Shown: positions 3,459 to 62,152, counted from the first letter of the stretch. The stretch is DNA of 64,000 nt from Bacteroidota bacterium (GCA_020048915.1 JAIFLU010000017.1:484-64483), one strand, 5' to 3'. The notes: generated by a model not told the origin, from the sequence alone. Numbers and translations are program-made.

Positions 3459-3587
3459 TTAATTCGATTGATGCTGACTTTAGGTTTTTAACTGTAACCA
3501 AAGTTTTTCCTTTATTAGAAGCAACCTGTATGGTTGCCAAAAGCTTCCCATTAAAAGCATTCCTGAAATTTGTTTTATACCTGTCAT
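3459..3587 (-). pseudogene. Possible internally deleted gene scar
   Basis: An ATG 3 nt after the upstream stop opens the signal-like MTGIKQISGMLLMGS, joined out of frame to ATIQVASNKGKTLVTVKNLSQHQSN*. Confidence 0.4.
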
Positions 3588-3589
3588 GA

Positions 3590-4891
3590 TTATTTTGATA
3601 ATTTCAGTTTTAAGGTAAACGACTGTGTCATAAAACCGTAATACTCGGGTTTTCGGTTTGTATAATCTCCGGCGAAAAGAATTGTTCCTGAAAGTCCGTC
3701 GGCGCTGAACCATTTAGAAGGCATTTGTCCCAGGTAAGCGGTATGGTTGGCTCCACCCCACGGCATTTCAGTATGAACCACATACCATGGGCCCCACGGG
3801 TTCGGGCTTTCGTAAATCTGCAATTCCGACTGGTAATTCCATTTTTTGAATTCTTCAGGAGAAGCATTTTCATGGTGAGGAACGACATCGCTGTAATTAA
3901 GTAGAAAATATCGTTTTAGTACTTTGTTGTAGCTTATTGTTGGATGTCCGGTATGGTCTATGTCGGTAAAAACAGGTTTTGCTTTTTTTAATTCAGAAGA
4001 CCAAGAAGGCTGGTTATTCTGGCCTGCATCGGCAAAAAACTGCCATGCATTCCGCTGCAGAATGCTGTCGCGGTGAACACGGCCAAGTCTGATGTTATCG
4101 CCTGTAGCCCAACTTCCATCGTTCGAAATGGCATAAACGTATGGATCTAAAGCCTCTGGTGTTTCGGTGTTTCCCTTGCCAAAGGTTAAAAAGGCAGGTG
4201 CGCCAAATTCAGGTTCAAAAAAGCGTGGTGTAGTTTCGTTAGGAATGTTAGTCCAGGTTTTACCAAAATCAACAGATTTAATTATTCCTGCTACGCCGCC
4301 AAGTTTCGAATAGCCATCAATAAAACCCATATTGTAGCCCAAGGTTGAATCTAAGTTGTACCATGAATCGAATAATTTTATGCGGTGATAAAGGGTATCG
4401 TAATTCAATGGTTTTGAAGGAATATCCCAGTCATAGTCATAAATACTTACATATAATACGGAGTCAATAGCCACAGGACCGCATACATAACGCCGTAACA
4501 ATTTATTTGGGATGTGAGCCCTGAAATCGATGGTGTCGAAGTCAGTAGCCGTTTCAACAGTATGGTTTGGCGGAATTCCTGTAACCCGCAATACGTGTGC
4601 GTACCAACCCTTTCCACCAAAATTGGCGCCATCGTCTTCAACGGTATAAATAGCATCATCAATTCCCCATGTCCACCAGTGCATGTCTGAGCCCGAGCCC
4701 GGATAACGGTAGGGTTCCGAAGTCCATTCCAATTTTTCGATGAATTCACTTTGCGGATAGGGCAACTGCCTGTAAAACCCTACTTTTTTCTCCATACAAG
4801 AAGTCAATAGCAATGAGCAAAAAACAAAGTAAATCAAAATATTACTTGTGTTTAATCTAAATATCATGTGATTTTTTTTTCTGTATTCCAT
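3590..4891 (-). CDS. DUF4185-like secreted lipoprotein (putative beta-propeller glycosidase); start may be at 4867
   Basis: Lipobox LLLTSC; YPQS..LEW..EP, GSDMHWWTWGIDD, ISYNKVLKRY, ESPNPWGPW, PSKW. Close paralogue of 62176..63450. Confidence 0.65.
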   Translation of the reverse strand: MEYRKKNHMIFRLNTSNILIYFVFCSLLLTSCMEKKVGFYRQLPYPQSEFIEKLEWTSEPYRYPGSGSDMHWWTWGIDDAIYTVEDDGANFGGKGWYAHVLRVTGIPPNHTVETATDFDTIDFRAHIPNKLLRRYVCGPVAIDSVLYVSIYDYDWDIPSKPLNYDTLYHRIKLFDSWYNLDSTLGYNMGFIDGYSKLGGVAGIIKSVDFGKTWTNIPNETTPRFFEPEFGAPAFLTFGKGNTETPEALDPYVYAISNDGSWATGDNIRLGRVHRDSILQRNAWQFFADAGQNNQPSWSSELKKAKPVFTDIDHTGHPTISYNKVLKRYFLLNYSDVVPHHENASPEEFKKWNYQSELQIYESPNPWGPWYVVHTEMPWGGANHTAYLGQMPSKWFSADGLSGTILFAGDYTNRKPEYYGFMTQSFTLKLKLSK

Positions 4892-4906
4892 ACTGTTTAT
4901 GTTGCT

Positions 4907-5095
4907 TTAATAAATCACTATTTTATCTACTCTAATATTTGTTAGGTTGCAGCCAAAAAGGGATTTTTATATTGCCTTTTTATAGATATTTTTTATAAAT
5001 ATCTGATGAAACTACAAACTGTCAACTATTTGGTCTGTTCACAGGGTATTTATTGTAATGCCATTGCCTTTTAGGTTTTTCAGCAATGGGAAATG
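4907..5095 (-). pseudogene. Possible decayed C-terminal fragment of a beta-helix (GH28-like) gene
   Basis: One frame reads LKNLKGNGITINTL*TDQIVDSL*FHQIFIKNI...TNIRVDKIVIY* with three internal stops. The I/V-x-I-x-N rhythm is typical of beta-helix coils. Confidence 0.3.
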
Positions 5096-5126
5096 GTATC
5101 ATAATAAATATACTATAAATAAAATT

Positions 5127-8100
5127 TTACTTTACCCAATACGTTGATATTTTAACTGGTCCAATTAAACCTGCCTCCCAAAGTTGGTCCTCCGAAGAAT
5201 ATTTTTCCCGCTCGCTATCAGCTTGATAACCTTTTACAGGATATATTGTATATCGGGGCTTGTCGGGGTGCAGATCATCACCAATTATCCGGTTATCCCA
5301 AGTATTAGTGACTTTTATTTCAATGGTATTTTTTCCAGTCTTTAATGCACCGCTAATGTCACAAGAATATGGTGGGAAAATTCTGGTTGCAATTAATTTA
5401 CCGTTGACATGTATTTCAGCAATGTCCTTAACTTTTCCTAAATCAAGAATATACTTCATGTTATTTTCGATATATTTTGAAGGTAGTTCTATAACTTTTG
5501 AATAGCTGGCAGTGCCGGAATAAAATCTGATATTATCAATTTTACTTTTTGTCCAGGAATATAACGTATCGAAAATTACAGTAGAAGGTACAACACCCAT
5601 AGAATCAGAAAAAGTCACATTCCATCGGTCTTTCAAAAGGATATCGGGTTTACTACCCTTAGCTTTAAAACGTGTAACATCACCTCGTGAATCTGTAATT
5701 ACGTAATCTGAATTACGATTGGTTGATATGGAGATTGACTGCTTGGAATTATATACAATTTCAGGATACTCTGTTTGTGTCTGAGCAAAAGGGAACAATA
5801 CCTTATTGTTTTCAAGTATTCTGGTGCAGTAAGTTTGTTTAGGTGCAGACCGAAATACGAACATAACAGATTGGTATGGTTTTAGATTTACAGGAATGCG
5901 TGTTTGTTTGTCTTGGAAACTGAATACGGGAAGAATTGAAATTTCACCTGTTTCGGTATTCCACATTTCAGGCTGCAAACCTTGCATTCTGAAGATTAAT
6001 TCAGCTTGCAAACCCTCATTTTTTTGGTTCGAAACAAAATAGACATGCGATCCTTCAATTTCTTTGTGAATATACAGCAATTCGGGGTTTTGTACCGATG
6101 TAGTATACGTAAAATCGGGTAAGATTTTTTCTTTCGATAATACCTCACCTATTTCCATTCCACTATAAACACGTCCTTTTCCATAAGTATTTAAAGCTGG
6201 AAAATTTTTATTATGATTTTCCCAGATCCTGTCTGCAATTACTTGTAATTGCTTTTCATTCTCACCTAAATCGGTTAAACTATAACATGATTCGGGTTTC
6301 TGACCTATAATAATTCCACCGTTTAATAAAAACTCCTCGATTTTTAGTAATACATTAAGCGACATCTTGTTTGCTTTTGGGAGCACTAACACTTTATATT
6401 TTATCCCATTAGGCAAATTAAAAATTCCATCTTTACAAGTAATTGCGTTTAACATTGTATTTTTATCAAGCATATCACATGTATATCCATGAGGCATAAT
6501 ATGATAGGGAGAGGTTGCGTGGTATGCAAATTCAAAGTCGGTGGGGATATTTTCTCCGGTATAAAAAAGAACATCTGCAATTGTTTGTCCTTTTTGCATA
6601 ACCGACTGTATTTTAGTGAAATAATTATTTAATTCTCCGGCATATTTCCACCATGTAAGTTTTCTACCATAGAATATACCAAAAAGATGCTGCAATCCTG
6701 GATATGATTCATCGGGTTGATGGATGTATTTATGCAATTCTAACTGGTTGATACCTATCGTGAAAGCTTTATCGGCAATAGGTTTTAAAATGGCCGGAGT
6801 AACGCTGAAATCGTTGAATAACGCAGTAAATGCTTCGGTTGGAATAACAGGGTGGTTATTTTGCCGCGAAACGGATATCACATCGTATAACGAGCTAAAA
6901 CCCTTGAAACTAAAATTGCGTTTATCATCTCTGTCAACCCAAATCTCCATAGCTGGAACATCAACCTGTTGACCATATAGCATGGGGTTTGTCTGCATTT
7001 GTTGTTCACCTCCCACCTGGGCTACAAACTTTATCCCATGTTCATTACAAAGAGTATTCAATTTTTTGTAATAATTATCTGCAAGCATCTCTGAGAGTGT
7101 TAATCGCAGATCAAACAAAAATCTTTCACTAACATCAATGTTGTCAACAACTTCGCCTGATAAAACAACAAACCAATCCATCATATTATATCCTCTGCGT
7201 TTTTGAAATTCAGAAGGTAATGATTCAGTCCAGTTTTGCGACAATGCCTCAAAACTATCGTGGAATAATCGGGTTAGAGCAGTGTCACCTGTATTTTTTA
7301 TAGTATCAATCCATTTACCGGCATACCCGTTAAAGAACAATTCTATAGCCTCACTACTTAATTTGTCGCATTCAAGCCCGGTACCTTCTTTGGTTGCAGG
7401 TCCATTTTCTCTTCCCGTAAGTGTATATCCCATTCGTACTATGGTCCAGTTACCGGCAGGTGCATTCCATTGCAGCAAACCGTTTTTATCCATATATTGA
7501 GTTATATCCAATATCTTTTCACGAGGGATACAGTTTTTAACGGGAACATCAAGTGATTCCATACAGCCACGCCTCCGATGCCATACAGCAGCTTTCACTT
7601 CAAAGTCGTTAATTTTTGGCAAATCAGACACATTGGTGGGTGAAAGCATTTCAATTTCAGAAATAAATGCCCAACTGCCATTTCCACTTGCAGGGGTAAA
7701 TTTATTAATCTTTATCCTGTAATATTTAGCTTCTATGGGCCGAAAAGAAAAACTACCCATAATATCGTTTAATTTAAACCTTCCAATGGTAGTATAATTA
7801 ATGCTGTCATTTGAAAATTGAAGTTCACATTCCTGTATTCCGACAGGCGATTCTTTACTTGTATGATAAATATTGATTTGGCTTATTGGGGTTGTCTTTT
7901 TAAATTCAAAATTTATCAATCGTTTTGTATCATCAGTTTTGTATCCAAACATGGTTTCAGAATACCGATCTCCATCAATCAGATGCTGAGGATTAACATT
8001 CCAGCCACCAAAAGTTACCTTAATATTAGCTTTGTTGAATAAATGTAACGAATTATCTATTTGCGGAAAGGCATATACCTTTATATCCTTATAAAAATTC

Positions 8101-10993: not shown

Positions 10994-10998
10994 GCGTA

Positions 10999-11081
10999 TA
11001 TAATTTGTTCTTTAATTGTCAGATGGAACTTGCCAACGATAATCATGTGTGTGTGAGATTATCTCTCACGGTTCGTTTCAT
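10999..11081 (-). repeat. About 83-bp diverged direct repeat, copy 2
   Basis: Same blocks as 8590..8673. The ATG(11081)..TGA(11019) spacing is also 63 nt, but there is an internal TGA. Confidence 0.8.
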
Positions 11082-11090
11082 TATTTGATT

Positions 11091-11236
11091 TTATAAATTA
11101 ATGCTTACATCTTGCCCATTGGAGTATTTCAATTTCAAAACTCCGCCATTGTCAAGTACACACATATAATGGCATTTTTTTTCTCTGCACAAAAAATAGC
11201 AACTAAAAATAATGCGCAATAAAATAAATATTTCAT
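11091..11236 (-). pseudogene. Deletion scar: signal-peptide start joined to the last ~22 codons of a 'family X' gene
   Basis: MKYLFYCALFLVAIFCAEKK is joined out of frame to VLDNGGVLKLKYSNGQDVSINL*, which has 14/21 identities with the C-terminus of 63490..64000 (LEKGGVLKLKYSTGNDVVITF*). Confidence 0.8.
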
Positions 11237-11264
11237 TATGATTTTGTTATTGAACAAATTCTAT

Positions 11265-27248: not shown

Positions 27249-27320
27249 TTCATTACTATTTAATGTCAGTTCGATGTGTTATTTAAAGTTAATCAATATA
27301 TTACCCAATAAGATTAATAG

Positions 27321-29533: not shown

Positions 29534-29617
29534 ACCAGCCACCATCGCTTTGGTTTAAAGTTTTATGTTTAAGACTGTTATTTTACCAGTTTCCTTCGTA
29601 TTGTTTAATAGCCTTTG

Positions 29618-39916: not shown

Positions 39917-39953
39917 GGATGTTTTATTAATGATGTAAAAGGATTAGGACAGT

Positions 39954-40008
39954 TAAACACGAAAACACTTAGAATAATTAACATCAGTGTCTTCGTGACT
40001 TCGTGTTA
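39954..40008. repeat. Short CACGAA-based inverted/tandem repeat hairpin
   Basis: ACACGAAAACACT...AGTGTCTTCGTG-ACTTCGTGTT. A related GCACGAAG occurs at 42881. Confidence 0.55.
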
Positions 40009-40023
40009 ATCATTTCTTCTTTA

Positions 40024-41499: not shown

Positions 41500-41516
41500 T
41501 TGAATATTAATTAGGT

Positions 41517-42857: not shown

Positions 42858-42954
42858 TTGTATTGATTTAAGCCATTAAAGCACGAAGAAGTTATCTTTT
42901 TCATATCTATCAGGGAAACGGGAAGTGGCTGTTTGTCTAATTACTGATTACTAT

Positions 42955-43896
42955 TTACTTAGTACTTTTATCTTTATTCAGCCAATTAAGCCACAACTGT
43001 AAATTTTTGGTCCACGATGCAATATGGTTGTTATTGACACCCAACCCGAAACCATGACCGCCTTCGGAAAGGATGTGCAGCTCGGCAGGAATCTTCTTTT
43101 TCCGCATGGCAGCATACATCTGCAGCGAGTTTTCGACCGGCACTCCCTTGTCATCGTCGGCATGTACAAAGAAAGCAGGAGGCGTGTCGTCCTTCACCTG
43201 GAGCTCGTTGGAGTAATATTCAGCAAGTTTGGGATCGGCGTTTTTGCCCAGGAGAGCTTCTCTGGAGCCAGGATGCATCAACGGAGACGTGAACGAGATT
43301 ACCGGGTACATCAGCACCATAAAATCGGGTCGGCAGCTGAAGCGCTCCACAGTATCGCTGGCCGATTTATTGCCGTAATCGAAATGCGTCCCGAGGGTAG
43401 AAGCCAGGTGACCACCTGCCGAGAATCCCATGACTCCGATTTTGGCGGTATCAATGTTCCATTTGGCAGCATTTGTGCGCACCAGACGCATGGCACGCTG
43501 GGCATCCATGAGCGGAGCTTTATGCGGTTCGACGGTATTGCCCGCCGTTGGCAGGCGATATTTCAGCACAATGCCAGTCACACCAATGGAATTCAGGTAT
43601 CGGGCAATGTCGGTACCTTCCAGGTCGTAAGCCAAAATCCAATATCCGCCGCCCGGACAAATCACCACAGCCTGTCCGGTGGAAAAGCGTTTCGAAGGTA
43701 AATACACAGCAATATTGGGTTCCTGAACATTGGATACAATAATGATATCTTTCTTTTCTACCTTTTCGGGGGTGTCCGTTTTTTTGGAATTGGGAATTTC
43801 GCCACTGTAAAGCGGAAGCACAAAATCCTGACCGCTTACCACCAGGGTCAACCCGGTGAAGAAGACATAGAGAGTGAGGATGCGTTTGATATACAT
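42955..43896 (-). CDS. Alpha/beta-hydrolase, probable carbohydrate (acetyl) esterase
   Basis: CPGGGY, LKYRLP, GFSAGGHLA (Ser), HADDDKGV (Asp), GGHGFG (His). Confidence 0.88.
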   Translation of the reverse strand: MYIKRILTLYVFFTGLTLVVSGQDFVLPLYSGEIPNSKKTDTPEKVEKKDIIIVSNVQEPNIAVYLPSKRFSTGQAVVICPGGGYWILAYDLEGTDIARYLNSIGVTGIVLKYRLPTAGNTVEPHKAPLMDAQRAMRLVRTNAAKWNIDTAKIGVMGFSAGGHLASTLGTHFDYGNKSASDTVERFSCRPDFMVLMYPVISFTSPLMHPGSREALLGKNADPKLAEYYSNELQVKDDTPPAFFVHADDDKGVPVENSLQMYAAMRKKKIPAELHILSEGGHGFGLGVNNNHIASWTKNLQLWLNWLNKDKSTK

Positions 43897-43944
43897 TTTT
43901 ATCTGGTTTATTCGTTTTTAGTTTGATATTATTTTAGATAAAGC

Positions 43945-46323: not shown

Positions 46324-46328
46324 GTTTG

Positions 46329-48734: not shown

Positions 48735-48744
48735 TTTATGAAGT

Positions 48745-49044
48745 TTAAAGTTCTAAAGGTTGAAAAGCACCATACCAGGGTGATGGCTCATATTTCCACT
48801 TTCGACCGGATAATTTTACGGCTGGAATTTTCTCAGGTACAAAATCAAAGTTCAGTTCGTCGCGGTACTCACCCGGCATTGCCATTTCCGATGCTTTGAA
48901 TATACTTGCGAAAGGTGAATCTTTGGCTCCTGTATTACTGTCGTTTCCATCCAAACCAACAAAATATTCTTTACCAGAAATTGAAATGGATAACATAACT
49001 AAAATTCCAAATAATTCAAGTTTTCGTAAAATCCTTTTTTTCAT
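48745..49044 (-). pseudogene. Internally deleted right-handed beta-helix protein (N- and C-termini fused in frame)
   Basis: Signal peptide plus EYFVGLDGNDSNTGAKDSPFASIFKASEMAMPG (start motif of DUF1565/GH120/PL9-type helices), followed directly by EYRDELNFDFVP...*; only about 99 aa. Confidence 0.7.
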
Positions 49045-49069
49045 ATATCCTGTTTTCTCCATAAATAAT

Positions 49070-51574
49070 TCATTTGCTTTCAGTAGCCTGCAATAACCAG
49101 GTCGCTGATTTCAAACCTGTAGAACTTAACTCTACCTTTATCGGCCCGGCATTATTTGTTGCCTGAAGTATAACCAAAAGCCTTCCCTCGTAAGCTTTTC
49201 GTTTGTTTGACTTAAAAGCAGTTACATCCGATTGGTTTCCGTTATCCAGGCCAATCAGCTTTGCCGGTCCGGACACTTCGACCTTAATTTCCTGATTTGC
49301 ATCGGGAACTACAATTCCATTCTTATCCACAATGGACACGTCGAGGGTTACCACATCTTCGTTGTTTGCTTTCAGACTTTTTTTGCTTGCTTCTATTTTG
49401 ATTTCCGAAGCGTTTTCAGCCGTTCTGAGGGTGTGGTCGGTAACTTTTTTATTGTTTTTATAACCGATGGCCTTTACTTTCCCGGGTTTATAGGGAACTT
49501 CCCAACGGGCATAGTAAAGATTTTTATCTACTGGTTTTCTCCCGATTAAAGAATCGTTGATATACAGTTCTACTTCATCACAATTCGAATACATGTAAAC
49601 AGGCAATAAAAAATTACCAACCCATTTGTGGTTCCAATGCGAAACGGCTTTGCGCGGGTGCCACTCACTTTCGGGGGTAGCTGAGGTTTCGATGGCAATT
49701 TGCACAACCGGCTGGCTCGACCAGTAGCTTTTGCGAAGATAAAATTCAGGGTAGGGCACTCCGGCCATATCGATGAGTCCTGCATCCCAGCCACGTTTTG
49801 GCCATTTGCCAGCTTCTCCCAGGTAATCAAAAGCCACCCATACAAACTCGCCAATCACATTTTCGTTATCTCTTACTGCCAGCCAGTACCGTGGCCCATA
49901 AAATGTTTCTGTTCCTAATAAAAGCCGCTTTGGTTTTTTTACCATTTCAGGGGCATACATGGCTTCGCCATTGTAGCGGTCAACATAGTTATAACCGGCA
50001 ATATCTAAAGCGGAAAGGAAACCATTGGCATTCGCGTCTTCCACAAAATCGACGGCTGAAGTTACCAAACGCGTGGGGTCTTCGCTGTGACAAATATCCT
50101 GAAGTCTTTTGGCGATTGATACTCCATCGGGAGTGCGTTGGTTGGGTATCTCGTTACCAATGCTGTACATGATTACCGAAGGATGATTGCGGTCGCGGCG
50201 GATAATTGCACGCAAATCGGTTTCAGCCCATTGGTTAAAATACAAATGATAGCTGTATGGCATTTTTCCATAGGTATTTTCGGTGCTGCCCCAGGGATAG
50301 CCTTTGTTCCATTCGTCAAAGGCTTCGTCCATCACATAAAAACCCATGGAGTCGCACAAATCGTAAAATTCGGGCGCAAAAGGATGATGGCTTGGACGGA
50401 TGGCATTGCAGCCCATTTCCTTAAGCTTCTTTAACCTTTCGTGCCAAACTCCAATGGGTACGGCAACACCCAGCGAACCTGCATCCTGGTGTAAACAAAC
50501 GCCTTTCAGCTTTTCCTGATTTCCGTTTACCAACATTCCTCTTTCGGGCGTAAACTCAACTTTGCGAATTCCTATCGTGGTGGAATAGTCGTCCATTACT
50601 TTCCCATCGTATTCCAGAGTTGTTTTCACCGTGTAGAGTTCAGGGTTTCCGGCACTCCAAAGCTTTGGGTTTTTCACCGGAATTGTCTGTGAAAAAGTAT
50701 GTTCATGAAAATCACCAATATTTTCTTTTACAGTTCCCTGAGCAACCACTTTTCCTTTGGTATCGAGAATTGTACTGGTAATAATAGCTTCCCTTGTTAT
50801 GCGCTTATTGGCATGAAGATTTCGACGCCACCAAAAGAATTCTGATTCAGGAAAAGCATTGGCAACAACTTTGTATTGCACTCTCACCTCAGCATTTTCT
50901 TTGTTTACAGAAGGATAACTTACATAAACGCCTGAATAATTATCGAAGTGAACCTGGTTGGTTGTGATAAGCCAAACATTCCGGTATATACCCGAACCGG
51001 CGTACCAGCGCGAGGCAGGTTGCAGTGAATTGTCCACTCTTATTGCAATAATGTTTGGTTTACCAAACTGAATATGTTCTGTAAGATCGTATTGAAATGT
51101 TGAATATCCATAAGGGTATTGACCTAGAAAATAACCGTTGATATAAACCCGGGAATTCATGTAAACGCCATCGAACTGTATCACAATTCGTTTAGCGTTC
51201 AAGGAGTCGGGGAGTGTAAACGTTTTCCGGTACCAGGCTACACCACATGGTAAAAAAGCGCCATTTCCTTTTGCCGGATTGTCATCATCAAATTTACCTT
51301 CAACACTCCAGTCGTGAGGTAGGTTTAGCAATTGCCAATTACTGTCGTCGTAGGCTGATGATTCGAACCCAGCTTTATCTTCTAAAGTAAACTTCCAATC
51401 GAGGTTGAATTTGGTTTTTACCCGAACACTGGTTTCAGACTGAGCAAATAAAAGAGGCGGGAAAATCAAAGCCAAAAATAGGAGTTTAAAAAATTTTGAA
51501 TACTTCCCTGTTATAGCTTTAGTAAGGTTTCTAAAGAAATTCTGTTTGTTTAAAAATGTGTTTAGTTCTATCAT
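49070..51574 (-). CDS. GH2 beta-galactosidase-like protein
   Basis: LPHDWS, FDGVY, SRWYAGSGIYR, KGVCLHQD, NAIRPSH, RNHPSVIMYSIGNE, FVWVAFDYLGE, YSNCDEVEL. Confidence 0.92.
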   Translation of the reverse strand: MIELNTFLNKQNFFRNLTKAITGKYSKFFKLLFLALIFPPLLFAQSETSVRVKTKFNLDWKFTLEDKAGFESSAYDDSNWQLLNLPHDWSVEGKFDDDNPAKGNGAFLPCGVAWYRKTFTLPDSLNAKRIVIQFDGVYMNSRVYINGYFLGQYPYGYSTFQYDLTEHIQFGKPNIIAIRVDNSLQPASRWYAGSGIYRNVWLITTNQVHFDNYSGVYVSYPSVNKENAEVRVQYKVVANAFPESEFFWWRRNLHANKRITREAIITSTILDTKGKVVAQGTVKENIGDFHEHTFSQTIPVKNPKLWSAGNPELYTVKTTLEYDGKVMDDYSTTIGIRKVEFTPERGMLVNGNQEKLKGVCLHQDAGSLGVAVPIGVWHERLKKLKEMGCNAIRPSHHPFAPEFYDLCDSMGFYVMDEAFDEWNKGYPWGSTENTYGKMPYSYHLYFNQWAETDLRAIIRRDRNHPSVIMYSIGNEIPNQRTPDGVSIAKRLQDICHSEDPTRLVTSAVDFVEDANANGFLSALDIAGYNYVDRYNGEAMYAPEMVKKPKRLLLGTETFYGPRYWLAVRDNENVIGEFVWVAFDYLGEAGKWPKRGWDAGLIDMAGVPYPEFYLRKSYWSSQPVVQIAIETSATPESEWHPRKAVSHWNHKWVGNFLLPVYMYSNCDEVELYINDSLIGRKPVDKNLYYARWEVPYKPGKVKAIGYKNNKKVTDHTLRTAENASEIKIEASKKSLKANNEDVVTLDVSIVDKNGIVVPDANQEIKVEVSGPAKLIGLDNGNQSDVTAFKSNKRKAYEGRLLVILQATNNAGPIKVELSSTGLKSATWLLQATESK

Positions 51575-51624: not shown

Positions 51625-53277
51625 TTAAGGTTTTATTTCTTTATAATCAAACCAATCATAAAGAGCGAAGCTATCTGAAACTTTTTGTGACTCTGCATAT
51701 AATCCGATGAATGTACCCATGTACCCTCCTGATTTTTCTACAGAGAATAGACTACCATCAAAATCCATAACGGCTTCTTTCCAGTCACACTGGTTCTCTT
51801 TGTAGAAAAAAGAGAATTGAGATTCTTTCTGGATAATTTTTAATGATAAGGCTTCTTTGGAAAGGACTTTTGCATTGAATAGTTCCGTTTCAACTGAGTC
51901 AGTTCTATTTATCACCTTTAACTCCGATTTGCTGTTTAATACAAATTTTAACAATGCTTTTTCTGATTTATAAATCAGCAATCCGGCCATTTCGCCGGTA
52001 TATTTTGTATTAAATAAAACGGATGTTGAAATTTCCGCATCACGATATTTTAACCGTTGTCCAATAAAAGCAGGCTCGGGAGGAGCATTGGATATAGCAT
52101 TTAAAGGTTTTATTTTTAGGAATCCTGGTTTTTCTGTTAATGAATAAAAATTCGATTTTGGAGTTCTGATAAAAGTCCAGATGTGAGCCAATTGGGTGGA
52201 ATTAAATTCGTCTCTGCTGGAAATAGGAGGAACGGAGTGAACAGGCAAATTAGGGAAATTTTCGTTAACAGGTACCTGTCCGTATCCGGGACTAATAATA
52301 GGCCATTGATCCTTATCCCATTGCACCGGCACCAGAAAAGTCTCGCGCCCAAGAATACTGTTTTTTCGATTCAGCGGACGCGATCCCAGGCAAACCATCC
52401 ACCATTCACCGGTTTGGGTTTGTACCAAATCGGCATGGCCAATGTTTATAAAAGGAGTGGTGTAACCCATTGACCTGTGAGAGAGAATAGGGTTTCCTTC
52501 ATAATTCTCATATGGACCCGTAATATTTTTACTTCGCGATATGGTTATTGCATGAAAAAGCCCGGTACCTCCTTCTGCAATAAGCAAATAATAATATCCA
52601 TCCTTTTTAAACATTTTAGGGCCTTCCGGGTATTTGGAATCTATCATAGCCCCTCGTCCAATATAGGATGGAGAACCGATAAGCTTCAGTGAAGTTAAAT
52701 CAATTTCCTGCAGCATAACAGATGCCGCACCCGGATGGCTAAAGCCTACGGGAGGGTGGTTCATCAGCCAGTAGCATTTGCCATCATCATCAAAAAACAA
52801 AGAAGGGTCAATTCCCCAAATGGTGTCGGTAATAACATAAGGTGATGACCAAGGGCCTGAGGGATTATCGGCTGTAAGTATAACATTTTTAAATCCTACC
52901 TTCATTCGCCAGTCCACCCAGGTGAGAGGCAAATAAAACGTTCCTTTATTGTAGCGGATGGTTCCTGCCCAGGCTCCTGCCGAAGAAGCAAGGCCGTCAA
53001 AATTAAACTGTTCCGGCCGATGTATCCCAAAGCCGGCATGTGACCAATTAACAAGATCTTTGCTATGCCAAATGGGTACACCGGGAAAGTATTCGAAACT
53101 GGAATTGGATAAATAATAATCTTCACCCACCCTGCAAATGCTTGGATCGGGATAAGCTCCCGAAATAATTGGGTTTGTATATGTTGATGTTTGTGAATAT
53201 ATTCTGCTCCAATTCGTAAATGACAGAATTAATAAAAACAATATTGAAAGTCTATAATTTATCTCCTTCATAATCAT
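51625..53277 (-). CDS. GH43 beta-xylosidase/alpha-L-arabinofuranosidase with a C-terminal beta-sandwich
   Basis: NPIISGAYPDPSICR, SSFEYFPG, GIDPSLF, PEGP, AEGGT, GHADL, LGRETFL. Confidence 0.92.
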   Translation of the reverse strand: MIMKEINYRLSILFLLILSFTNWSRIYSQTSTYTNPIISGAYPDPSICRVGEDYYLSNSSFEYFPGVPIWHSKDLVNWSHAGFGIHRPEQFNFDGLASSAGAWAGTIRYNKGTFYLPLTWVDWRMKVGFKNVILTADNPSGPWSSPYVITDTIWGIDPSLFFDDDGKCYWLMNHPPVGFSHPGAASVMLQEIDLTSLKLIGSPSYIGRGAMIDSKYPEGPKMFKKDGYYYLLIAEGGTGLFHAITISRSKNITGPYENYEGNPILSHRSMGYTTPFINIGHADLVQTQTGEWWMVCLGSRPLNRKNSILGRETFLVPVQWDKDQWPIISPGYGQVPVNENFPNLPVHSVPPISSRDEFNSTQLAHIWTFIRTPKSNFYSLTEKPGFLKIKPLNAISNAPPEPAFIGQRLKYRDAEISTSVLFNTKYTGEMAGLLIYKSEKALLKFVLNSKSELKVINRTDSVETELFNAKVLSKEALSLKIIQKESQFSFFYKENQCDWKEAVMDFDGSLFSVEKSGGYMGTFIGLYAESQKVSDSFALYDWFDYKEIKP

Positions 53278-54704
53278 TTGTTTGAAATATTCGTAAGCTT
53301 TATCATCAAGGCATGATTAAAATTAATTTTCTGCGGAAGCACTATTTCAAGACCGTCATTTGTTGGTTTGAAAGAAAGTTGTTCTGTTTTGACACCATAA
53401 AGAAAAACTTTGGATAATTGACTTGTTTTGCACGAAGGAATGATAACCGTCTTACTTTTAGGTGCTTTAAGCAGAAACACATACAAATCTTCGTTCTTTT
53501 GGGTAAACCTGATTTGGGTACCATCTTTCAATTTTTCTGATGGAATTACATAAGGATGTGTGCCATAAATTCCTTCACCATTAATTTCCAACCAATTACC
53601 CAGATCGTTCAGCCGCAGCAATTGATTTTCAGGAATGGTTCCATCCGCTTTTGGCCCGACGTTTAAGAGTAAATTTCCATTCTTACTTACAATATCAATG
53701 AGCAAATGAATCAGTTCTTCTGACGATAAAAGTTGCGCATCACCTTCCACCTGGTTATATCCGAACGAAAATCCCATTCCCCGGCAAGTTTCCCATTTCT
53801 TTGACACAATGGAGTCCATCACCTGGTATTCAGGAGTTGTAAAGTTTGTTAGTTCGGGATGCTGCTGCCAGCGGTTGTTTACAACAGCATTGGGATTGAC
53901 ATTGAACAATTCAGCAAAAATGCCAAGTATGTCGCCATTTTTTGGATAATCCACATCGTTCCACAATATGTCGGGTTTATAACGATGAATCAGTTCGTGT
54001 ACCTGACAATCGGCATACACGGTATAGGCTACTGATTTTGGCATACTTTCAAAAAGGTCGGGCCAAAGGTTGGTAATTGGGCTGTAATTGAATGTCCAGT
54101 CTAACCCGCCCGAATAATACACACCGAATTTCATTTGCTTTTGGCGAACAGCTCGGCTTAACTCGCCAACAAAATCGCGTGTACTGTTTATTTTTCCTTT
54201 CTCCATGAAAGGATTGATTATCTGGGAGGGATACATCGTAAAACCATCGTGGTGTTTGGTGGTAAAAACCACATACCGGGCACCGCTTTTGCTAAATATT
54301 TGGGCCCATCCATCAGCATTCCAGTTTTTGGTTTGCAGCAGGAGCGAATCCCTGAAACTGTAATAATCAAAGTCCTTTCCATATTTCTTTTCATGATACT
54401 CACGTGTTGGCGAACCCTCGATGCGCAACGAGTTCAAATACCATTCGGCATAAGGGTTGCTTTTATAAAAGGCTTTCCAATCTTTCACCTTATCAGGCGT
54501 AGTTGTCGGAGTGGCCCATGCCGGAACGGAATACAGTCCCCAATGAATAAATATCCCAAGTTTGGCATCATTATACCATTGCGGAGCTTTTCTTTTCTGC
54601 AACGATTCTACGGTTGAAATGTAAACATATTCTGACGGTTTCTGTGCAAAAGTGAATTTTACTCCTGCAAACAGAAAAAGTATAAGTAATAACTTAATTT
54701 TCAT
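53274..54704 (-). CDS. GH29 alpha-L-fucosidase
   Basis: IHWGLYSVP, TTKHHDGF, YYSGGLDW, LWND, KWETCRG, NLLLNVGP. The ATG at 54704 is preferred over 54725. Confidence 0.93.
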   Translation of the reverse strand: MKIKLLLILFLFAGVKFTFAQKPSEYVYISTVESLQKRKAPQWYNDAKLGIFIHWGLYSVPAWATPTTTPDKVKDWKAFYKSNPYAEWYLNSLRIEGSPTREYHEKKYGKDFDYYSFRDSLLLQTKNWNADGWAQIFSKSGARYVVFTTKHHDGFTMYPSQIINPFMEKGKINSTRDFVGELSRAVRQKQMKFGVYYSGGLDWTFNYSPITNLWPDLFESMPKSVAYTVYADCQVHELIHRYKPDILWNDVDYPKNGDILGIFAELFNVNPNAVVNNRWQQHPELTNFTTPEYQVMDSIVSKKWETCRGMGFSFGYNQVEGDAQLLSSEELIHLLIDIVSKNGNLLLNVGPKADGTIPENQLLRLNDLGNWLEINGEGIYGTHPYVIPSEKLKDGTQIRFTQKNEDLYVFLLKAPKSKTVIIPSCKTSQLSKVFLYGVKTEQLSFKPTNDGLEIVLPQKINFNHALMIKLTNISNK

Positions 54705-54714
54705 GTTCTTCGAT

Positions 54715-57321
54715 TTAATTCTCAACTACTTCAAACACTTTATTTAACCTGATATCTTCAGATGAACTTCCAATTTGTATTTCGAATTTGCCGGGCTCAA
54801 CTACCCACTTCATATTCTTGTTAAGAATGGAAAGATCTTCGGGAGAAATGGTGAATCGAATAGTTTTCGTTTGTCCCGGATTTAGTTTTACCCTTTCAAA
54901 ATCACGCAACATCTTTCGCAGCGGTGTCACACTCCCTACTAAGTCAACTACATATAATTGCGGTACTTCATCGCCGGGAACTGTTCCGGTGTTTTTCAGC
55001 TCGAACTCTATTTCAAAACTATCCTGAGAGTTTATTTTTTGTTTGGATATCATCAGGTTCGAAAACTGAAAGGTTGTATAACTTAAGCCATAACCAAATG
55101 GAAACTGCGGCTCGTTCCCAAACTCCAGAAAGCTAGTGCCTGTTCCGGGGCGCATGAAATAATAGGCAGGAACCTGCCCGACAGTTTTAGGAAATGTTAT
55201 GGGTAACTTTCCACCAGGATTGTAATCACCAAAAAGCACCTCGGCTACTGCTGTGCCACCTTCCTCGCCCGAATACCATGATTCGAGAATTGCGGGTGCT
55301 TCATCAATCCAATTGTTCATGGTAATAACATTTCCTGTTGCCAGCACCACCACAAATGGTTTACCTGTTTGAGCCACCCTATGAATGAGCTCTTCCTGAT
55401 TTTTCGAAAGGTTCAGATCTGCACGGTCCTTTCCTTCTCCATCAAGTGCACCGCAAACAATTACACAAGCGTCAGAGCTGTCAACCACTGCAACAGCTTC
55501 CTGAATTCCAAGGTCGTTAATTGCATCCCAACCAAGTTTACAAACAGCATCATGCGTGGAATCAAAATATTCAAGAGTAATGCGTACTTCTTTTCCTTGC
55601 TGAAAGTAATATGATACCGTTGAAGAACGCTTTGCTCCTTTCGACCAGTTATCAAGAACCAATTCTGAATTTAGAAAGAGACGGGCGCCATCGTCGCAGG
55701 TAATACCAATATTGAAAGTACCAGACTTTGGCGCAACAAGAAAACCTGTCCATCGTACCGAAAAATTATCTTGATTGATAAATGGGTGTGCTACACCTTC
55801 GCCCCAATCAAAATCTATTGATTCGTCAACCCTATTAAGAGCAGGAGAGCCTTCCATAAGATTATTGTTAAAATATTCGGCTTTTAATCCTGCTAGCTTT
55901 GTCCCATTCGAGTTGTGGTGAAGGTATTCCTTTGAAATTTTTGGTAAGAAATCCCGGTTTAATTCAACACCTTTAGCATAGTTTATTTTTGCAGAGTTAC
56001 CTATTTTGTTGCGAATACCTTCCAGAATATTTACTTTTTTCATTCCCCAAGGCGCATAATTTCCAAGCAATTGTTCATTTGCCAGCGGGCCAATAACTGC
56101 AACCGATTTTATATTTTTAGGGAAAGGTAAAATTTTATTGTTTTTAAGCAGTACGATAGCTTCTTTTGCTGCTTCAAGAGCCAAAGCCCTGTGATTTGCA
56201 TGATCACAAATAGTATCAGCTGCTTCGGGGTTGGCAAACGGATTTTCAAATAAACCAATCCGTATTTTGGCTGACAGTGCGTTGCGAACAGCATTATCGA
56301 GGATAGCCATACTTAGTTTTCCTGAATTTACAGCTTCTATCAGGGAACTGCCAAAAATTACAGTTTCGGGCATTTCCACATCCATTCCGTTTGTAAGCGC
56401 AATAACTGCAGCATCTACTTTGCTTTCGGCAAGGTTGTGCAGGTTCCAGATTTGTGCCACGGCACCGTAATCGGAACCAACGAAGCCTTTAAATCCCCAT
56501 TCCTTGCGCAATACATCGTGCAGAAGCCATTTATTGGAAGAACACGGAATTCCATCGATGGTATTGTAAGCAGGCATAATAGAGCCACATCCGGCATCAA
56601 CAGCCATTTTGAAGGGTGGAAATTCAACTTCGCGTAAAAACCGCTCGCTGTACATAATTGCACCTCCAAACATGCCATTGTGTCCAATATTTGCAACAAA
56701 ATGCTTTGGTGTGGTAATAATCCCGATTTCGAGCATCGGCTTAATATACGAAACGCCCATTAAGCCAACCAGATATGGATCTTCTCCATAGGTTTCGTGA
56801 GTCCGTCCCCAACGCGGATCGTAAGCCACATTAACGGTAGGGCTTAAAACCTGTCGGTGTCCCCACGAATAGGTTTCCTTTGCTATTGCCTCGGCAATTT
56901 TGGTATGAAGCGGAATATTAAATGTTGCTGCTTGCCCCAGCGGCTGGGGAAAACAAGTGGTGCCGGTAGCCATCAACCCAAATACAGCTTCCCCATGATA
57001 AAGTACCGGAATACCTAATCGGGTATTTTCAATAAATGCTTTTTGAAGTGCATTAAATTTGGTGGCAGCTTCTCTGGGTTCTAACGCCAGAAAAACTTCA
57101 GTGAGACAACCCATCCCAGTAGCGGGTACTTTCGATGCATCGGTAATTGAAAGGCTTGTTTGCAATTGGGCTACTTTTTCTTCTAAAGTCATTTTGGACA
57201 TTAGATCGGCAACTCTTTTTTCAACAGATAAACCAGGGTTTTTATAATCAGCTTTTTGAGCAAATATGCTAAAAGTACAGAGAAAGAGTAAGTAGAATAA
57301 ACCTAATAGTTTGAATTTCAT
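54715..57321 (-). CDS. GH3 beta-glycosidase with a PA14 insert and a Fn3-like domain
   Basis: RLGIP, DPRWGRTHETYGEDP, KHF, GSDY (nucleophile), GLKAEYFNN...FSVRWTG...DDG (PA14), FPFGYGLSYT. Confidence 0.93.
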   Translation of the reverse strand: MKFKLLGLFYLLFLCTFSIFAQKADYKNPGLSVEKRVADLMSKMTLEEKVAQLQTSLSITDASKVPATGMGCLTEVFLALEPREAATKFNALQKAFIENTRLGIPVLYHGEAVFGLMATGTTCFPQPLGQAATFNIPLHTKIAEAIAKETYSWGHRQVLSPTVNVAYDPRWGRTHETYGEDPYLVGLMGVSYIKPMLEIGIITTPKHFVANIGHNGMFGGAIMYSERFLREVEFPPFKMAVDAGCGSIMPAYNTIDGIPCSSNKWLLHDVLRKEWGFKGFVGSDYGAVAQIWNLHNLAESKVDAAVIALTNGMDVEMPETVIFGSSLIEAVNSGKLSMAILDNAVRNALSAKIRIGLFENPFANPEAADTICDHANHRALALEAAKEAIVLLKNNKILPFPKNIKSVAVIGPLANEQLLGNYAPWGMKKVNILEGIRNKIGNSAKINYAKGVELNRDFLPKISKEYLHHNSNGTKLAGLKAEYFNNNLMEGSPALNRVDESIDFDWGEGVAHPFINQDNFSVRWTGFLVAPKSGTFNIGITCDDGARLFLNSELVLDNWSKGAKRSSTVSYYFQQGKEVRITLEYFDSTHDAVCKLGWDAINDLGIQEAVAVVDSSDACVIVCGALDGEGKDRADLNLSKNQEELIHRVAQTGKPFVVVLATGNVITMNNWIDEAPAILESWYSGEEGGTAVAEVLFGDYNPGGKLPITFPKTVGQVPAYYFMRPGTGTSFLEFGNEPQFPFGYGLSYTTFQFSNLMISKQKINSQDSFEIEFELKNTGTVPGDEVPQLYVVDLVGSVTPLRKMLRDFERVKLNPGQTKTIRFTISPEDLSILNKNMKWVVEPGKFEIQIGSSSEDIRLNKVFEVVEN

Positions 57322-59632: not shown

Positions 59633-59656
59633 TTGATTAAATTTATAGTATTTAAA

Positions 59657-61894
59657 CTATCGGTTTTTTATTATTCCCCAATCAGTTTCAGTTGCTGACA
59701 TTTCAAAAGTCAAAGCCCCACCTTTCATTATCTCCTGGTGTGTAATGCTCGTGCTATTAAATATTTTCCCGTTTAAATAAACCTTTTTAACGTACTTATT
59801 TTTTGCGTCAAAGTTTTTTGTATTCACAATAAATTTGTTTCCATTATCAAGTTTAATCTCTATTGATTTATACTTTGGAGAAGTTAATAAATAATAGTTT
59901 TGACCAGCATTCGGATACAAACCCATCGCATGAAATGCAAACCAAGACGACATGGCACCAGAATCGTCATTTCCGGGAATTCCATCTTTTTGATGCGTAA
60001 ATTTAGAATTAAGTATTTGATCAATTATTAAATTAGATTTATTGGGTTTTCCGATAAAATGGTACAAAACGGGCGTAAAAAAACAAGGCTCATTTGTAAC
60101 ATCGTAATATTTTTTTGCAAAAAAAGTATCCAATCGGTTTTCGAAAGACAAAGCGCCACCACATTTCTCAATCAGTGCAGGTACATCGTGCATAATGTGT
60201 AATGAATATTGATTTGAATTGCCCTCATAAAAAACATCATCCCATCCCCAACCAAATGAATTGGGCGTAAAAATCCTTTTTTCTTTTTCAAATTTATATG
60301 TAACATCAGACCAATATGTTTGATAAGTGCTATCAACCCATTTACCATCAATAGTTTTGGGCCAAATGAATCCTTTTGCATTATTAATAACCGTATCGCG
60401 CCAAATATTTTTCCAATTAGAACTGCGCTGTAAGTATTTGTCAGCAATACTATTTTTACCTAGCCCCTTTGCAACCTTATAAATTGAATAATCGCACAAA
60501 GCATACTCAACCGTACGCGTGCAATGGCGTTCGTGATTATATGAAACATATCCATTATTGTTGTATTCATTCACACCACCACGACCTAGAAAACGGTGAA
60601 AATAACCTGGATCATTTTCAGAACCATCCATCATTGCTTTTAAAGCAAGATTATAATCAATACCCTTTATATCTTTTATAAAAGCATCGGCAATTACCAC
60701 ATCGGCATTAGTGCCACCTTGCGTTAAACCGATACAATTTCCACTACTGGCATCAGGCAAAAATCCATATATTTTATAGCTATCCAGTAACGAATTTATC
60801 ATGCCCGTAACCCTTATTGGCGTAATAATAGTGAGCAAAGGAAACACAGTACGATAGGTATCCCAAATAGCATAAAAATCGTCGTAATAAGCATTATGGG
60901 ATTCAAAAACTGGATTCTCGCCTGTTCTGTCAGACGGTATCAAACAAGAATGATACAGCGTAGTATAGAAAATTTTACGCTTATTTAAATCGCTTTCGTC
61001 AATCTCAATACGACCAAGCAAATCAGACCATTTTTTACGCGCATCCAAAACAACTTGCCCAAAATTCCATTCTGGCAATTCACGCACAAGATTCTGCTTG
61101 GCTTTTGCTGAACTGTTATACGAAATGGCAACTTTTAATTTAACTTCGGCGTTATTCTTAAAACCAAAAGCCGCAATCCCATCTACAACAGTATTTTTAG
61201 AAGAATTATAATCGAACTTAAGCGTAGTACTGCCATTATAAACAGAATCGAATGGAACATCAAAAACAGCATAGAAAAAAACGGTATATGTTTCGCCTTG
61301 ATTCCAGCCTCCTCGCACACGAGTATATCCGCACAATTCCGTTTGCGATAAAATTTCAAGTTCACTACCTACTAAATATTGAGACTCATTACTATTTTCT
61401 TTCCCCAAATGATGATTTAAATCGAAACGAACAAAGGATTTCTCAGAATTCTTGAATTTGTATTTATGAAAAGCTACACTATTCGTAGCAGTAAGTTCGA
61501 GTAATATATTTTTATTTTCAAGCTCGGTGCTATAATAACCAACGCTTACAGCTTCGTTTTGGCGATAAATCTTATAATTAGATGACAGATTGGAACTTAA
61601 TTGAGGACAAACAAGTATGTTTCCATATTTGGGCCCTCCACCGGTACCACTAACATGGGTATGACTAATACCAAACATGCTACTATCTTTCGAGGGGGCA
61701 ACATATCCACTATTAGAATTTAATGAACAATCGGGTCCGGGCTTAACCATTCCGAAAGGAAGTGTTGGGCCTATAAATATATTTCCCTCACCCATACTGC
61801 CAATGAGAGGATCCACATCATTACTGAAATCGTGCTGCGAATATGTTTTTTGAAAACATAGAAAAGATAAAAGCACTAAAACAATATGTCTCAT
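59657..61894 (-). CDS. GH92 alpha-mannosidase
   Basis: PFGMVKPGPD, HVSGTGG, WDTYRT, TQGG, YEG, NEP, PGNDDSGAMSSW. Confidence 0.93.
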   Translation of the reverse strand: MRHIVLVLLSFLCFQKTYSQHDFSNDVDPLIGSMGEGNIFIGPTLPFGMVKPGPDCSLNSNSGYVAPSKDSSMFGISHTHVSGTGGGPKYGNILVCPQLSSNLSSNYKIYRQNEAVSVGYYSTELENKNILLELTATNSVAFHKYKFKNSEKSFVRFDLNHHLGKENSNESQYLVGSELEILSQTELCGYTRVRGGWNQGETYTVFFYAVFDVPFDSVYNGSTTLKFDYNSSKNTVVDGIAAFGFKNNAEVKLKVAISYNSSAKAKQNLVRELPEWNFGQVVLDARKKWSDLLGRIEIDESDLNKRKIFYTTLYHSCLIPSDRTGENPVFESHNAYYDDFYAIWDTYRTVFPLLTIITPIRVTGMINSLLDSYKIYGFLPDASSGNCIGLTQGGTNADVVIADAFIKDIKGIDYNLALKAMMDGSENDPGYFHRFLGRGGVNEYNNNGYVSYNHERHCTRTVEYALCDYSIYKVAKGLGKNSIADKYLQRSSNWKNIWRDTVINNAKGFIWPKTIDGKWVDSTYQTYWSDVTYKFEKEKRIFTPNSFGWGWDDVFYEGNSNQYSLHIMHDVPALIEKCGGALSFENRLDTFFAKKYYDVTNEPCFFTPVLYHFIGKPNKSNLIIDQILNSKFTHQKDGIPGNDDSGAMSSWFAFHAMGLYPNAGQNYYLLTSPKYKSIEIKLDNGNKFIVNTKNFDAKNKYVKKVYLNGKIFNSTSITHQEIMKGGALTFEMSATETDWGIIKNR

Positions 61895-62152
61895 TTTTTA
61901 TATAAGGCTATTAGATTATCTATTAGAATTGACTCTGGTAGGGGTTGCCCATGCAGGAACCGAATAAAGTCCCAAATGGATAAAAATTCCAAATTTGGCA
62001 TCGTTAAACCACTGAGGAGTGGGTCGTTTGAGTAATGATTCCTTTGTTGAAATATAAACATTTGATGGTTGCTGAGAAAATGTTTCATTACACATCAGAA
62101 AAATTATTAGCGTACTCAACCCAATCCTACAATAATTTATAAAAGGCTTCAT
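61891..62152 (-). pseudogene. Truncated third GH29 fucosidase (first ~72 codons) joined to a short tail
   Basis: Signal peptide plus VYISTKESL..PQWFNDAKFGIFIHLGLYSVPAWATPT, then the similarity ends abruptly. An out-of-frame tail ILIDNLIALYKK* overlaps the GH92 start (ATGA). Confidence 0.88.

Follow-up and report, generated by a model that had tools for sequence, protein, structure and literature searches.

Arrays of orphan modules made by displacement are known from contact-dependent inhibition (CDI) and Rhs loci, likewise from the effector-immunity loci of the Vibrio cholerae type VI secretion system (T6SS), and deletional bias is a general rule in bacterial genomes. The report on the T6SS loci (PMC8189183) describes homology-facilitated illegitimate recombination as the mechanism. 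In polysaccharide utilization loci (PULs), the order of the carbohydrate-active enzyme (CAZyme) genes reportedly decays with taxonomic distance (PMC6499787). We analyzed a 64,000-nucleotide stretch of DNA (hereafter the window) from a Bacteroidota bacterium, which corresponds to bases 484-64483 of the 64757-base contig C12, that is, nearly the whole contig. The assembly (G000) is a metagenome-assembled genome (MAG) bin of 317 contigs and 6.58 Mb with 38% GC and an estimated contamination of 3.3%, and the sequencing runs holding the stretch are labelled as microbial mat metagenomes. The window carries a long array of co-oriented CAZyme genes with relics of genes in its spacers. A sequence-only reading of the same DNA had described it as a self-remodelling, integrase-free cassette array whose spacers are scars of gene gain and loss; its observation was largely right and its interpretation was supported in part, the loss half being borne out and the gain half being plausible but unproven. 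We consider the window, with a probability of roughly 0.7, as the distal part of a very large PUL in an uncultured microbial-mat Bacteroidota that evolves by ordinary birth-and-death.

In the ordinary birth-and-death seen here, genes are lost through deletions having little or no homology at the junction, and selection on the deletion end points would let persist those that spare the neighbouring genes, so that the survivors would be a head left after the upstream gene or, more often, a tail retaining its native junction to the downstream gene. Recombination at gene boundaries with other CAZyme loci, whether paralogous or foreign, would bring in blocks of genes or exchange them. No dedicated cassette machinery would take part, and an insertion sequence (IS) marks at least one boundary of a sister locus.

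From 69 open reading frames (ORFs) of ≥100 aa, 38 were kept as gene models, 2 on the plus strand at the left edge and 36 on the minus strand. A Pfam family was assigned to 28 of the 38, and 20 recognisable CAZyme genes were found among the 36 co-oriented minus-strand ORFs. The array and the intact genes with which the relics are compared are as follows.

1917-63999, minus strand: co-oriented array of 36 ORFs, from the ORF list and Pfam.
29618-30934, minus strand: GH5 gene with a Por secretion tail, from Pfam.
30936-32372, minus strand: intact GH28 gene (GH28b), the start of the search for related loci.
46329-48734, minus strand: u801, 801 aa, missing from contig C226 of the same assembly and from contig C64 of the relative G011.
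49070-51574, minus strand: GH2b, the window GH2 gene with a G011 orthologue.
53274-54725, minus strand: intact GH29 gene (GH29b), the closest window match of the GH29 head.

Counterparts of the window were sought by DNA searches of 30 relatives and of 12 congeners. At the DNA level, counterparts were found for the central array and only a few for the left 20 kb, for which 4 of the 12 congeners gave a match at E<=1e-20. The best counterpart was the contig C226 (15556 bases), which shows 80-85% DNA identity to the window over six blocks; the six proteins common to both are 80-90% identical. Comparison of this sister locus with the window and with G011:C64 revealed two events with a readable direction, both of which are deletions. 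The first affected the following gene.

48745-49062, minus strand: remnant of gene X (beta-helix/DUF1565), a 105-codon ORF with an in-frame 1119-bp deletion, junction 48868|48869.

Full-length X, of approximately 480-490 aa with Beta_helix and DUF1565 domains, is present in G000:C226 (68-1504) and G011:C64 (10085-11563). The segment 265-1383 of C226 (1119 nt, exactly 373 codons) is missing from the X of the window, which keeps only the first and last parts of the gene, and the sequence shared at the junction is at most 3-4 nt (possible microhomology). Gene X has no paralogue in the window. These results indicate that the deletion occurred in the window. The second event concerns u801. The last 106 nt of this gene (46329-46434) survive in C226 as the "spacer" between X and GH78c, where positions 1509-1596 of C226 correspond to window positions 46434-46347, within the 3' end of u801, and encode KSSMNNNNLTLIEGTSTGVFKVIAEI followed by a stop codon, the last 26 residues of the protein. 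The u801 homologue of the congener G003 ends in a peptide homologous to the C226 relic, which argues that the tail belongs to u801 and that C226 lost u801.

We investigated the remaining spacers for relics of this kind. Thirty-four spacers were cut out between the gene models, including 13 internal ones of ≥90 nt, and compared by blastx with the 38 window proteins, with all ORFs of the own genome and with 2365 ORFs of related loci. Besides the remnant of X, the following spacer features were considered.

61916-62152, minus strand: head of a GH29 gene, an intact 78-codon ORF in the spacer 61895-62175, comprising the signal peptide and the first ~70 residues.
29486-29608, minus strand: C-terminal tail relic of a GH28 gene, ~40 codons with one in-frame stop, in the spacer 29490-29617.
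3448-3588, minus strand: C-terminal tail relic of a GH2 gene, 46 codons and a stop, ending 16 nt before the start of the MFS transporter gene, in the spacer 3432-3589.
11091-11159, minus strand: C-terminal tail relic of the 63490/883 family, the last 22 codons and a stop, in the spacer 10994-11264.
4892-5126, no strand: spacer holding the proposed remnant 4907-5095, without homology support.
42858-42954, no strand: spacer holding the proposed remnant 42854-42904, without homology support, bridged unchanged by a contig of the independent run X2.

Homology supported five of the seven remnants named in the sequence-only reading, and each of the five relics was significant on its own. The four that it had called clear were all confirmed (the GH29 head, the GH28 tail, X with its 1119-bp deletion and the 63490-family tail, the last, proposed at 11091-11236, being supported only at 11091-11159). 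Among the three weaker ones, 3459-3587 proved to be the GH2 tail, whereas 4907-5095 and 42854-42904 had no match in the window proteins, the own-genome ORFs or the related-locus ORFs. All five relics lie on the strand of the array. Three of the five are tails with their own stop codon, two of them lying ≤16 nt from the next start and one 97 nt away. Four relics (GH29, GH28, GH2 and 63490/883) come from families that also have intact members in the window, where three had been claimed.

The GH29 head is 78% identical over 50 aa to GH29b (blastx, E 3.5e-22), and the homology stops after "WATPT", 42 nt ahead of the GH92 start codon. Against GH29b, the ratio of nonsynonymous to synonymous divergence (dN/dS) was 0.06 and the proportion of synonymous differences (pS) was 0.70 over 41 codons; synonymous sites were saturated in regards to both resident GH29 genes, and the frame is unbroken. 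The saturated synonymous sites, the low dN/dS and the unbroken frame indicate that the head derives from a third, old paralogue that was functional until recently and was cut recently, rather than from a copy of a resident gene. The GH28 tail gave a blastx E value of 5e-4 against the 38 window proteins and was aligned with the GH28 tails of four relatives. Its last 44 nt (29490-29533) are 86% identical to the end of GH28b (30940-30983; repeat family D9), and its stop codon overlaps the start of the thioredoxin gene (ATGA). As to its origin, only its last 31-46 nt match the GH28b tails in relatives; no thioredoxin homologue was found in the fetched related loci, in which the GH5 homologues are only 28% identical. 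For the GH2 tail, the match is the terminal part of the G011 GH2b orthologue (45% identity over 42 aa; E 3e-5 among the 2365 ORFs). The relic at 11091-11159 matches the C-terminal end of the ORF 63490-63999 at 64% identity over 22 aa (E 4.5e-5 among the 38 proteins) and, less strongly, the end of the ORF 883-1848.

Relics of this type were not confined to the window. With crude genome-wide gene calls, an own-genome paralogue fragment at E<1e-5 was detected in 85 of 2075 spacers of 90-600 nt genome-wide (4.1%) and in 1 of the 13 window spacers of ≥90 nt; the other window relics surfaced only with the smaller locus-specific databases, for which there is no genome-wide baseline. The relic density in the window is not clearly above the genome-wide level. 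A stub is also present in a related locus (an N-terminal fragment in spacer 7365-7659 of G011:C64), and in other MAG loci five partial or split homologues (L023, L035, L052, L044 and L068) were found vs 74 full-length ones; errors of assembly may account for some of these five. Searches of the literature, supplements excluded, on PUL evolution with remnants or shuffling turned up no account of gene stubs in PUL spacers. The locus resembles cases of deletional decay in that heads, tails and an internally deleted ORF stand between intact genes, in that the X junction shares ≤3-4 nt and in that relics occur in ~4% of spacers genome-wide. It differs from them in that the genome is a large free-living one of 6.6 Mb and the locus is expanding, not part of a reductive genome. 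For the annotation of PULs, the short ORFs 48745-49062 and 61916-62152 are stubs and not small proteins.

The sequence upstream of the array connects it with a PUL. C12 ends in 88 nt that recur without a difference at the ends of both C94 and C105, which are 77-86% identical to each other, and joining C12 to either of them gives one continuous ORF of 556 or 563 aa. The assembly broke at a repeat between two similar loci. On C94 (L091, 1-20000), ten more co-oriented ORFs follow on the strand of the array, with the gene order GH30, DoxX-like, GH78, SASA esterase, GH97, GH43, GH9, SusD and TonB-dependent receptor; the SusD (PF07980, 2.6e-31) and TonB-dependent receptor genes are located at 17-20 kb. 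The array probably continues into this SusD/SusC contig. In G011:C64, genes for GH43, GH97, GH78 and GH30 stand directly before GH2b, so that G000 would carry ~14 kb of extra genes there. No SusC or SusD gene was found in the window by Pfam, and no Pfam family of hybrid two-component systems (HTCS), extracytoplasmic function (ECF) sigma or anti-sigma factors or SusR was found among the 38 window ORFs and the 10 C94 ORFs. The locus shares with known PULs the long co-oriented run of secreted CAZymes and, if C94 is its true neighbour, would share an upstream SusD/SusC pair. It differs in its unusual length (36 ORFs, and ~10 more upstream if C94 is the true neighbour), in that no regulator was recognised in the window, and in that the SusC/D link is one of two possible joins, C105 overlapping the same end of C12.

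The gene content of the array varies among its relatives. The gene orders, in the direction of transcription, and the two blocks that differ are listed below.

Window: GH2b, X remnant, u801, GH78c, esterase, GH28c, GFO, u550, GH2man, LyxIso, PfkB, MannDH, GH28b, GH5, {GH28 tail}, Trx, Sde182, u695, GH28a.
C226: X, GH78c, esterase, u550, another GH2, GH2man, GH28b, GH28a.
G011:C64: GH2b, X, GH78c, esterase, GH28c, GFO, u550, three other ORFs, GH28b.
G005:C9: esterase, u550, GH28b, Sde182.
32465-38064, minus strand: MannDH-PfkB-LyxIso-GH2man block, located in the u550|GH28b junction; missing from G005:C9 and G011:C64 or replaced there by other genes, and present in part in C226.
40024-42857, minus strand: GFO oxidoreductase and GH28c genes, present in the window and G011:C64, absent from C226 and G005:C9.

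The order X, GH78c, esterase, u550 ... GH28b is common to C226, G011:C64 and G005:C9, and the intervening genes differ. The breakpoints between the loci lie at gene boundaries. The prediction that aligned relatives would show variable gene content was confirmed, and that of breakpoints at the scars held for two of those named (the X remnant and the u801/GH78 junction); the others were at gene boundaries only. In 13 comparable loci, u550 and GH28b were adjacent in 5 and separated by fillers of differing content in 8, which argues for repeated gain at this junction. The spacers of the five direct junctions do not align with the window flanks and are too diverged for placing the breakpoints. One set of genes (u550, esterase, X, Sde182, the u253-u321 pair, GH28c, GH78c and the sugar-catabolism trio) was found repeatedly in the 51 loci surrounding GH28b homologues, in differing orders and nearly always co-oriented. 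This shuffling matches the decay of gene order described in PMC6499787.

The loci retrieved with GH28b carry the titles Prolixibacteraceae, Bacteroidales, Draconibacterium and Mariniphaga, and MAGs of Cyclobacteriaceae, Chitinophagales and Sphingobacteriales were also retrieved at 74-77% protein identity. Separately, we observed GH28b homologues of 75-77% protein identity in L033, L034, L036, L038, L041 and L053, which carry Cyclobacteriaceae, Ferruginibacter, Sphingobacteriales, Chryseolinea, Cytophagales and Chitinophagales titles. An identity of 75-77% is high for proteins common to different classes of Bacteroidota, and it suggests that the GH28b gene set spread laterally among Bacteroidota.

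We examined whether the variation is accompanied by mobile elements. As the sequence-only reading had stated, no integrase, transposase or other recombinase was found by Pfam among the 38 window ORFs, and on C12 the six-frame genome searches for the families PF00589, PF13359, PF01609 and PF00665 were also negative; the 11 matches of PF00589 in the genome include none on C12 or C226. Its statement on attC-like repeats was also correct: no repeat family recurs in the spacers, and the sole flank repeat above the null (1 of 34 genes) is a gene tail. Co-oriented genes of unrelated families with a content that varies among relatives are common to this locus and to integron cassette arrays. In contrast to those arrays, there is no IntI-type integrase on the contig and no repeated attC-like site, and the genes have their own signal peptides and spacers, with at least two internal regulatory-looking elements. 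Since no repeated attC-like site was found, the integron analogy is only a metaphor. The description as a self-remodelling, machinery-free cassette array is not supported; it is weakened by the IS at the end of the sister locus, by junctions that recur unchanged in other runs and by a relic density not clearly above that of the genome.

The absence of mobile-element machinery held for the window, in which neither the DDE_Tnp_4 IS described here nor IS ends or transposase fragments were detected, the spacers included. It did not hold for the sister locus, as C226 ends at this multicopy IS, which we take to be IS5-like.

L070 (G000:C226) 1-75 and L081 228-1201, no strand: IS of ~1 kb, HTH_Tnp_4/DDE_Tnp_4, with the transposase split into two ORFs in L081.

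Four other contigs end in a sequence identical to the first 75 nt of C226, which represent an IS end (its terminal ~72-75 nt) with the transposase start codon. The opposite end of the IS closes five further contigs of the genome, and at least 10 contig ends are closed by the IS in all. In the congener G003, the IS end gave 12 matches, most of them at contig ends, and five G003 contigs have an identical terminal segment of 137-140 nt in common. The metagenome contig L081 continues the IS end into ORFs with HTH_Tnp_4 (E 1.3e-7) and DDE_Tnp_4 (E 2.2e-18), and in this the repeat closing C226 and nine other contig ends resembles known ISs with a DDE_Tnp_4 transposase; the differences are that the element lies outside the window and that its transposase in L081 is split in two ORFs. 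Among the metagenome contigs with the IS end, 6 of 11 are identical to contigs of this genome, and none corresponds to the C226 junction. A flank of rRNA or tRNA genes was considered as the nature of the repeat closing C226 and dropped, Rfam having found nothing around the IS end. A copy of the IS end in G007 was also set aside; it matches at 70-81% and lies in non-coding sequence ahead of a SusC-like gene, no transposase being located close by.

Copies of this IS might have moved or truncated segments, which would explain the paralogous copy of the locus and part of the shuffling. The homology between C226 and the window starts at the IS boundary, ~30 nt before X, and 0 of the 5 contigs with the opposite IS end carry a GH2b-like gene, which argues that the IS marks a rearrangement boundary and not a simple insertion. 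The window has no IS sequence, the breakpoints inside the array have no IS scars, and the interior of the IS is missing from the bin. The IS is located at the left end of C226 only, the right end of which overlaps C17, a contig with more CAZyme-array genes; an IS at both ends, as in a composite transposon or an IS-bounded unit, was not found. Rearrangement by the IS is an improbable account of the locus as a whole.

The junctions were compared with independent data. Contigs of four other sequencing runs, dated 2014-2023, were aligned with 29200-49150; these are short-read contigs and may hide rare variants. Contigs of the run X2, whose sample and study differ from those of the possible source, bridge 29200-31611, 38849-43327 and 46380-49150 with 0 differences, and a 6507-nt X2 contig bridges the X deletion junction unchanged. 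X3 bridges 46061-46941 and X5 bridges 29474-29862, likewise with 0 differences. No reliable alternative joint or structural variant was found in the contigs of the four runs. Two joints (41036-41264 and 41109-41279) were set aside as unreliable, their sides being only 22-23 nt. One X5 contig leaves the window at 46409 into C226-type sequence, which indicates that the C226-type form is also real DNA. These results indicate that the tested junctions are real and stable, and "self-remodelling" was not seen at the scale of populations.

The same data bear on whether the scars are artefacts, that is, assembly chimeras or chance similarities in AT-rich spacers. The 317-contig bin with its estimated contamination, the two named remnants that found no support and the two long spacers that hold regulatory-looking or repeat elements instead of gene pieces would fit such an origin. 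The X2, X3 and X5 contigs bridge the scars without a difference, and the relics match the right end of the right protein, on the strand of the array and with stop codons in register. An artefact is very improbable and largely refuted.

Signs of gain were sought in base composition and flanking repeats. The change of GC content from gene to gene noted in the sequence-only reading was confirmed: ranked against the genome's 2821 long ORFs by GC content at third codon positions (GC3), the window genes extend from the 1st to the 100th percentile. In the block 23619-48734, most genes, with the exception of u695, have values in the 78th-100th percentile range, and the GH36, GH97, MFS and GH92 pair genes lie at the 2nd-16th. 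In regards to direct repeats, two genes had been described as bracketed. One, GH5, was recovered (44 bits vs a 95th percentile of 20.3) as the only one of 34 genes above the null, and the repeat bracketing it consists of two GH28 tails. The second was not; the next-best flank repeats, of 12 nt (GH2a) and 11 nt (GH97), are near the 95th percentile of the null, and that of GH97 spans two start-codon contexts. Two genes of the DUF4185 type stand at opposite ends of the array.

3590-4891, minus strand: DUF4185-like gene.
62176-63450, minus strand: DUF4185-like gene, 55% identical to the former.

These features bear on the mechanism of gain in the sequence-only reading, homology-facilitated illegitimate recombination, in which incoming DNA would anchor in the end of a CAZyme gene or in a relic, bring in genes and displace the resident end as a head or tail. 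The closest described analogue is the orphan-module arrays of V. cholerae T6SS (PMC8189183). As in those arrays, a putatively displaced end of a conserved gene adjoins new genes here (the GH28 tail behind GH5; the GH29 head ahead of the GH92 genes). The pieces here differ in being unpaired catabolic stubs without plausible retained function, and in that no donor tract is visible. In their anatomy, two scars are compatible with a one-sided, homology-anchored insertion and look as such an insertion would be expected to leave them. In the arrangement GH28b-GH5-{GH28 tail}-Trx, GH5 would be the insert, and in G005:C9 GH28b is followed directly by Sde182, GH5 being absent between them. In {GH29 head}-GH92b-GH92a-GH3-GH29b, the GH92 genes lie at the 10th-16th GC3 percentile and GH29b at the 77th, and the head resembles an old xenologue-like copy with an intact frame. 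The different fillers at u550|GH28b in 8 of 13 loci and the tract of high identity at the u801 relic would also fit.

The signature of homology-facilitated illegitimate recombination, an identity step at a homologous anchor together with an illegitimate join to foreign DNA, was found at none of the junctions, and no identity step between donor and recipient was seen. The diverged u550|GH28b spacers, the deletional nature of both events with an assignable direction, the single bracketing repeat among 34 genes and the lack of structural variants in four runs likewise speak against it, and natural competence is not known for this group. The proposed gain by this route was not supported, and we regard it as unlikely.

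Several observations weigh against ordinary birth-and-death of a single large PUL. GH5 is flanked by two GH28 tails, and GH92 genes of low GC separate the GH29 head from an intact GH29 gene located 7 kb downstream; both arrangements are expected of one-sided homology-anchored insertion, and deletion alone needs extra lost paralogues. For the DUF4185 pair, a sample of 80 other genomes of the order gave no match at E<=1e-30, and together with the range of GC3 this suggests that real gains occurred by a mechanism that is not visible. The C226 relic of u801 and the GH78c start are 94-97% identical to the window vs an average of ~84%, a tract that may reflect constraint or recent recombination, the latter being the adverse case. 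C226 might derive from a relative binned together with this genome; against this, comparing the genome with itself gave no second copy on a genome-wide scale, C12/C226 being the largest paralogous pair (10.1 kb) and the total of such pairs being small, which indicates that the assembly is not a bin of two congeners. The link of C12 with C94 is also only one of two joins.

The wider proposition that large PULs are edited by homology-anchored displacement within shared CAZyme genes (GH28, GH29) or surviving tails, the stubs being footprints of both gain and loss, is doubtful on present evidence. If it were true, surviving tails such as the u801 tail of C226 would be landing pads for re-acquisition, and a general, recombinase-free swapping of catabolic modules would exist in parallel to the orphan-module arrays of toxin loci; such displacement, if shown, would explain the modular exchange of CAZymes without mobile-element genes. 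Under ordinary birth-and-death, the locus is a well-resolved record of change in a giant glycan-degrading locus, with two directed deletions, five stubs, a sister locus and a variable junction. It is useful for considering how enzyme combinations are assembled and reveals no new mechanism.

The other genes of the array and the proteins without a family are listed below.

Array CAZymes, from Pfam: GH106, three GH2, two GH29, a melibiase-like gene, GH97, three GH78, three GH28, GH5, GH43, GH3, two GH92 and a BD-FAE esterase.
Other array genes, from Pfam: two DUF4185, Sde182, thioredoxin, the lyxose isomerase/PfkB/mannitol-dehydrogenase trio, GFO oxidoreductase, MFS transporter and several family-less ORFs.
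16723-19284, minus strand: u853, 853 aa.
25161-27248, minus strand: u695, 695 aa.
38264-39916, minus strand: u550, 550 aa.

For u801, u853, u695 and u550, each gave 0 PDB sequence matches and no useful Pfam family, and NCBIfam gave nothing useful for 9 proteins, with one sub-threshold row for u695. The proteins u853 and u550 are paralogues (29-32% identical), and homologues of u853, u550 and u801 are present in related loci. Atlas leads, which are leads only, put u801 and u853 near six-hairpin glycosidases (rhamnosidase/MGH1-like). The four proteins are candidates for new glycosidase families. No RNA genes were found in the window with Rfam at the gathering threshold or with ARAGORN.

Two long spacers hold elements other than gene pieces.

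27332-27474, no strand: palindrome and hairpin-rich repeat in the spacer 27249-27589, not a gene scar.
38172-38246, no strand: conserved non-coding element with a repeated AAATGTATA / TATACATTT-like motif, upstream of GH2man.

The former begins with a 45-nt palindrome (27332-27376; AAGAACCAAG..CTTGGTTCTT) with a perfect 10-nt inverted repeat and a 25-nt loop, the stretch being 90% conserved upstream of an unrelated ORF in G011:C42. It is followed at 27378-27474 by a hairpin-rich, low-copy repeat, which the genome also carries on a few further contigs, among them C226 (in a spacer). Together, the two may represent an internal operator/promoter and an element resembling repetitive extragenic palindromes (REP-like). 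The second element is 84% conserved in G011:C64 (23528-23603), where it stands upstream of GH28b. It is probably regulatory, and has the look of a control module retained in front of a sub-operon whose following genes vary.

At the left edge of the window, the u253-u321 pair (112-1848, plus strand) lies on the strand opposite to the array. It recurs as a pair inside the arrays of C17, L023, L029, L050 and L052, and u321 is related in its C-terminal part to the ORF 63490-63999 (34% over 190 aa).

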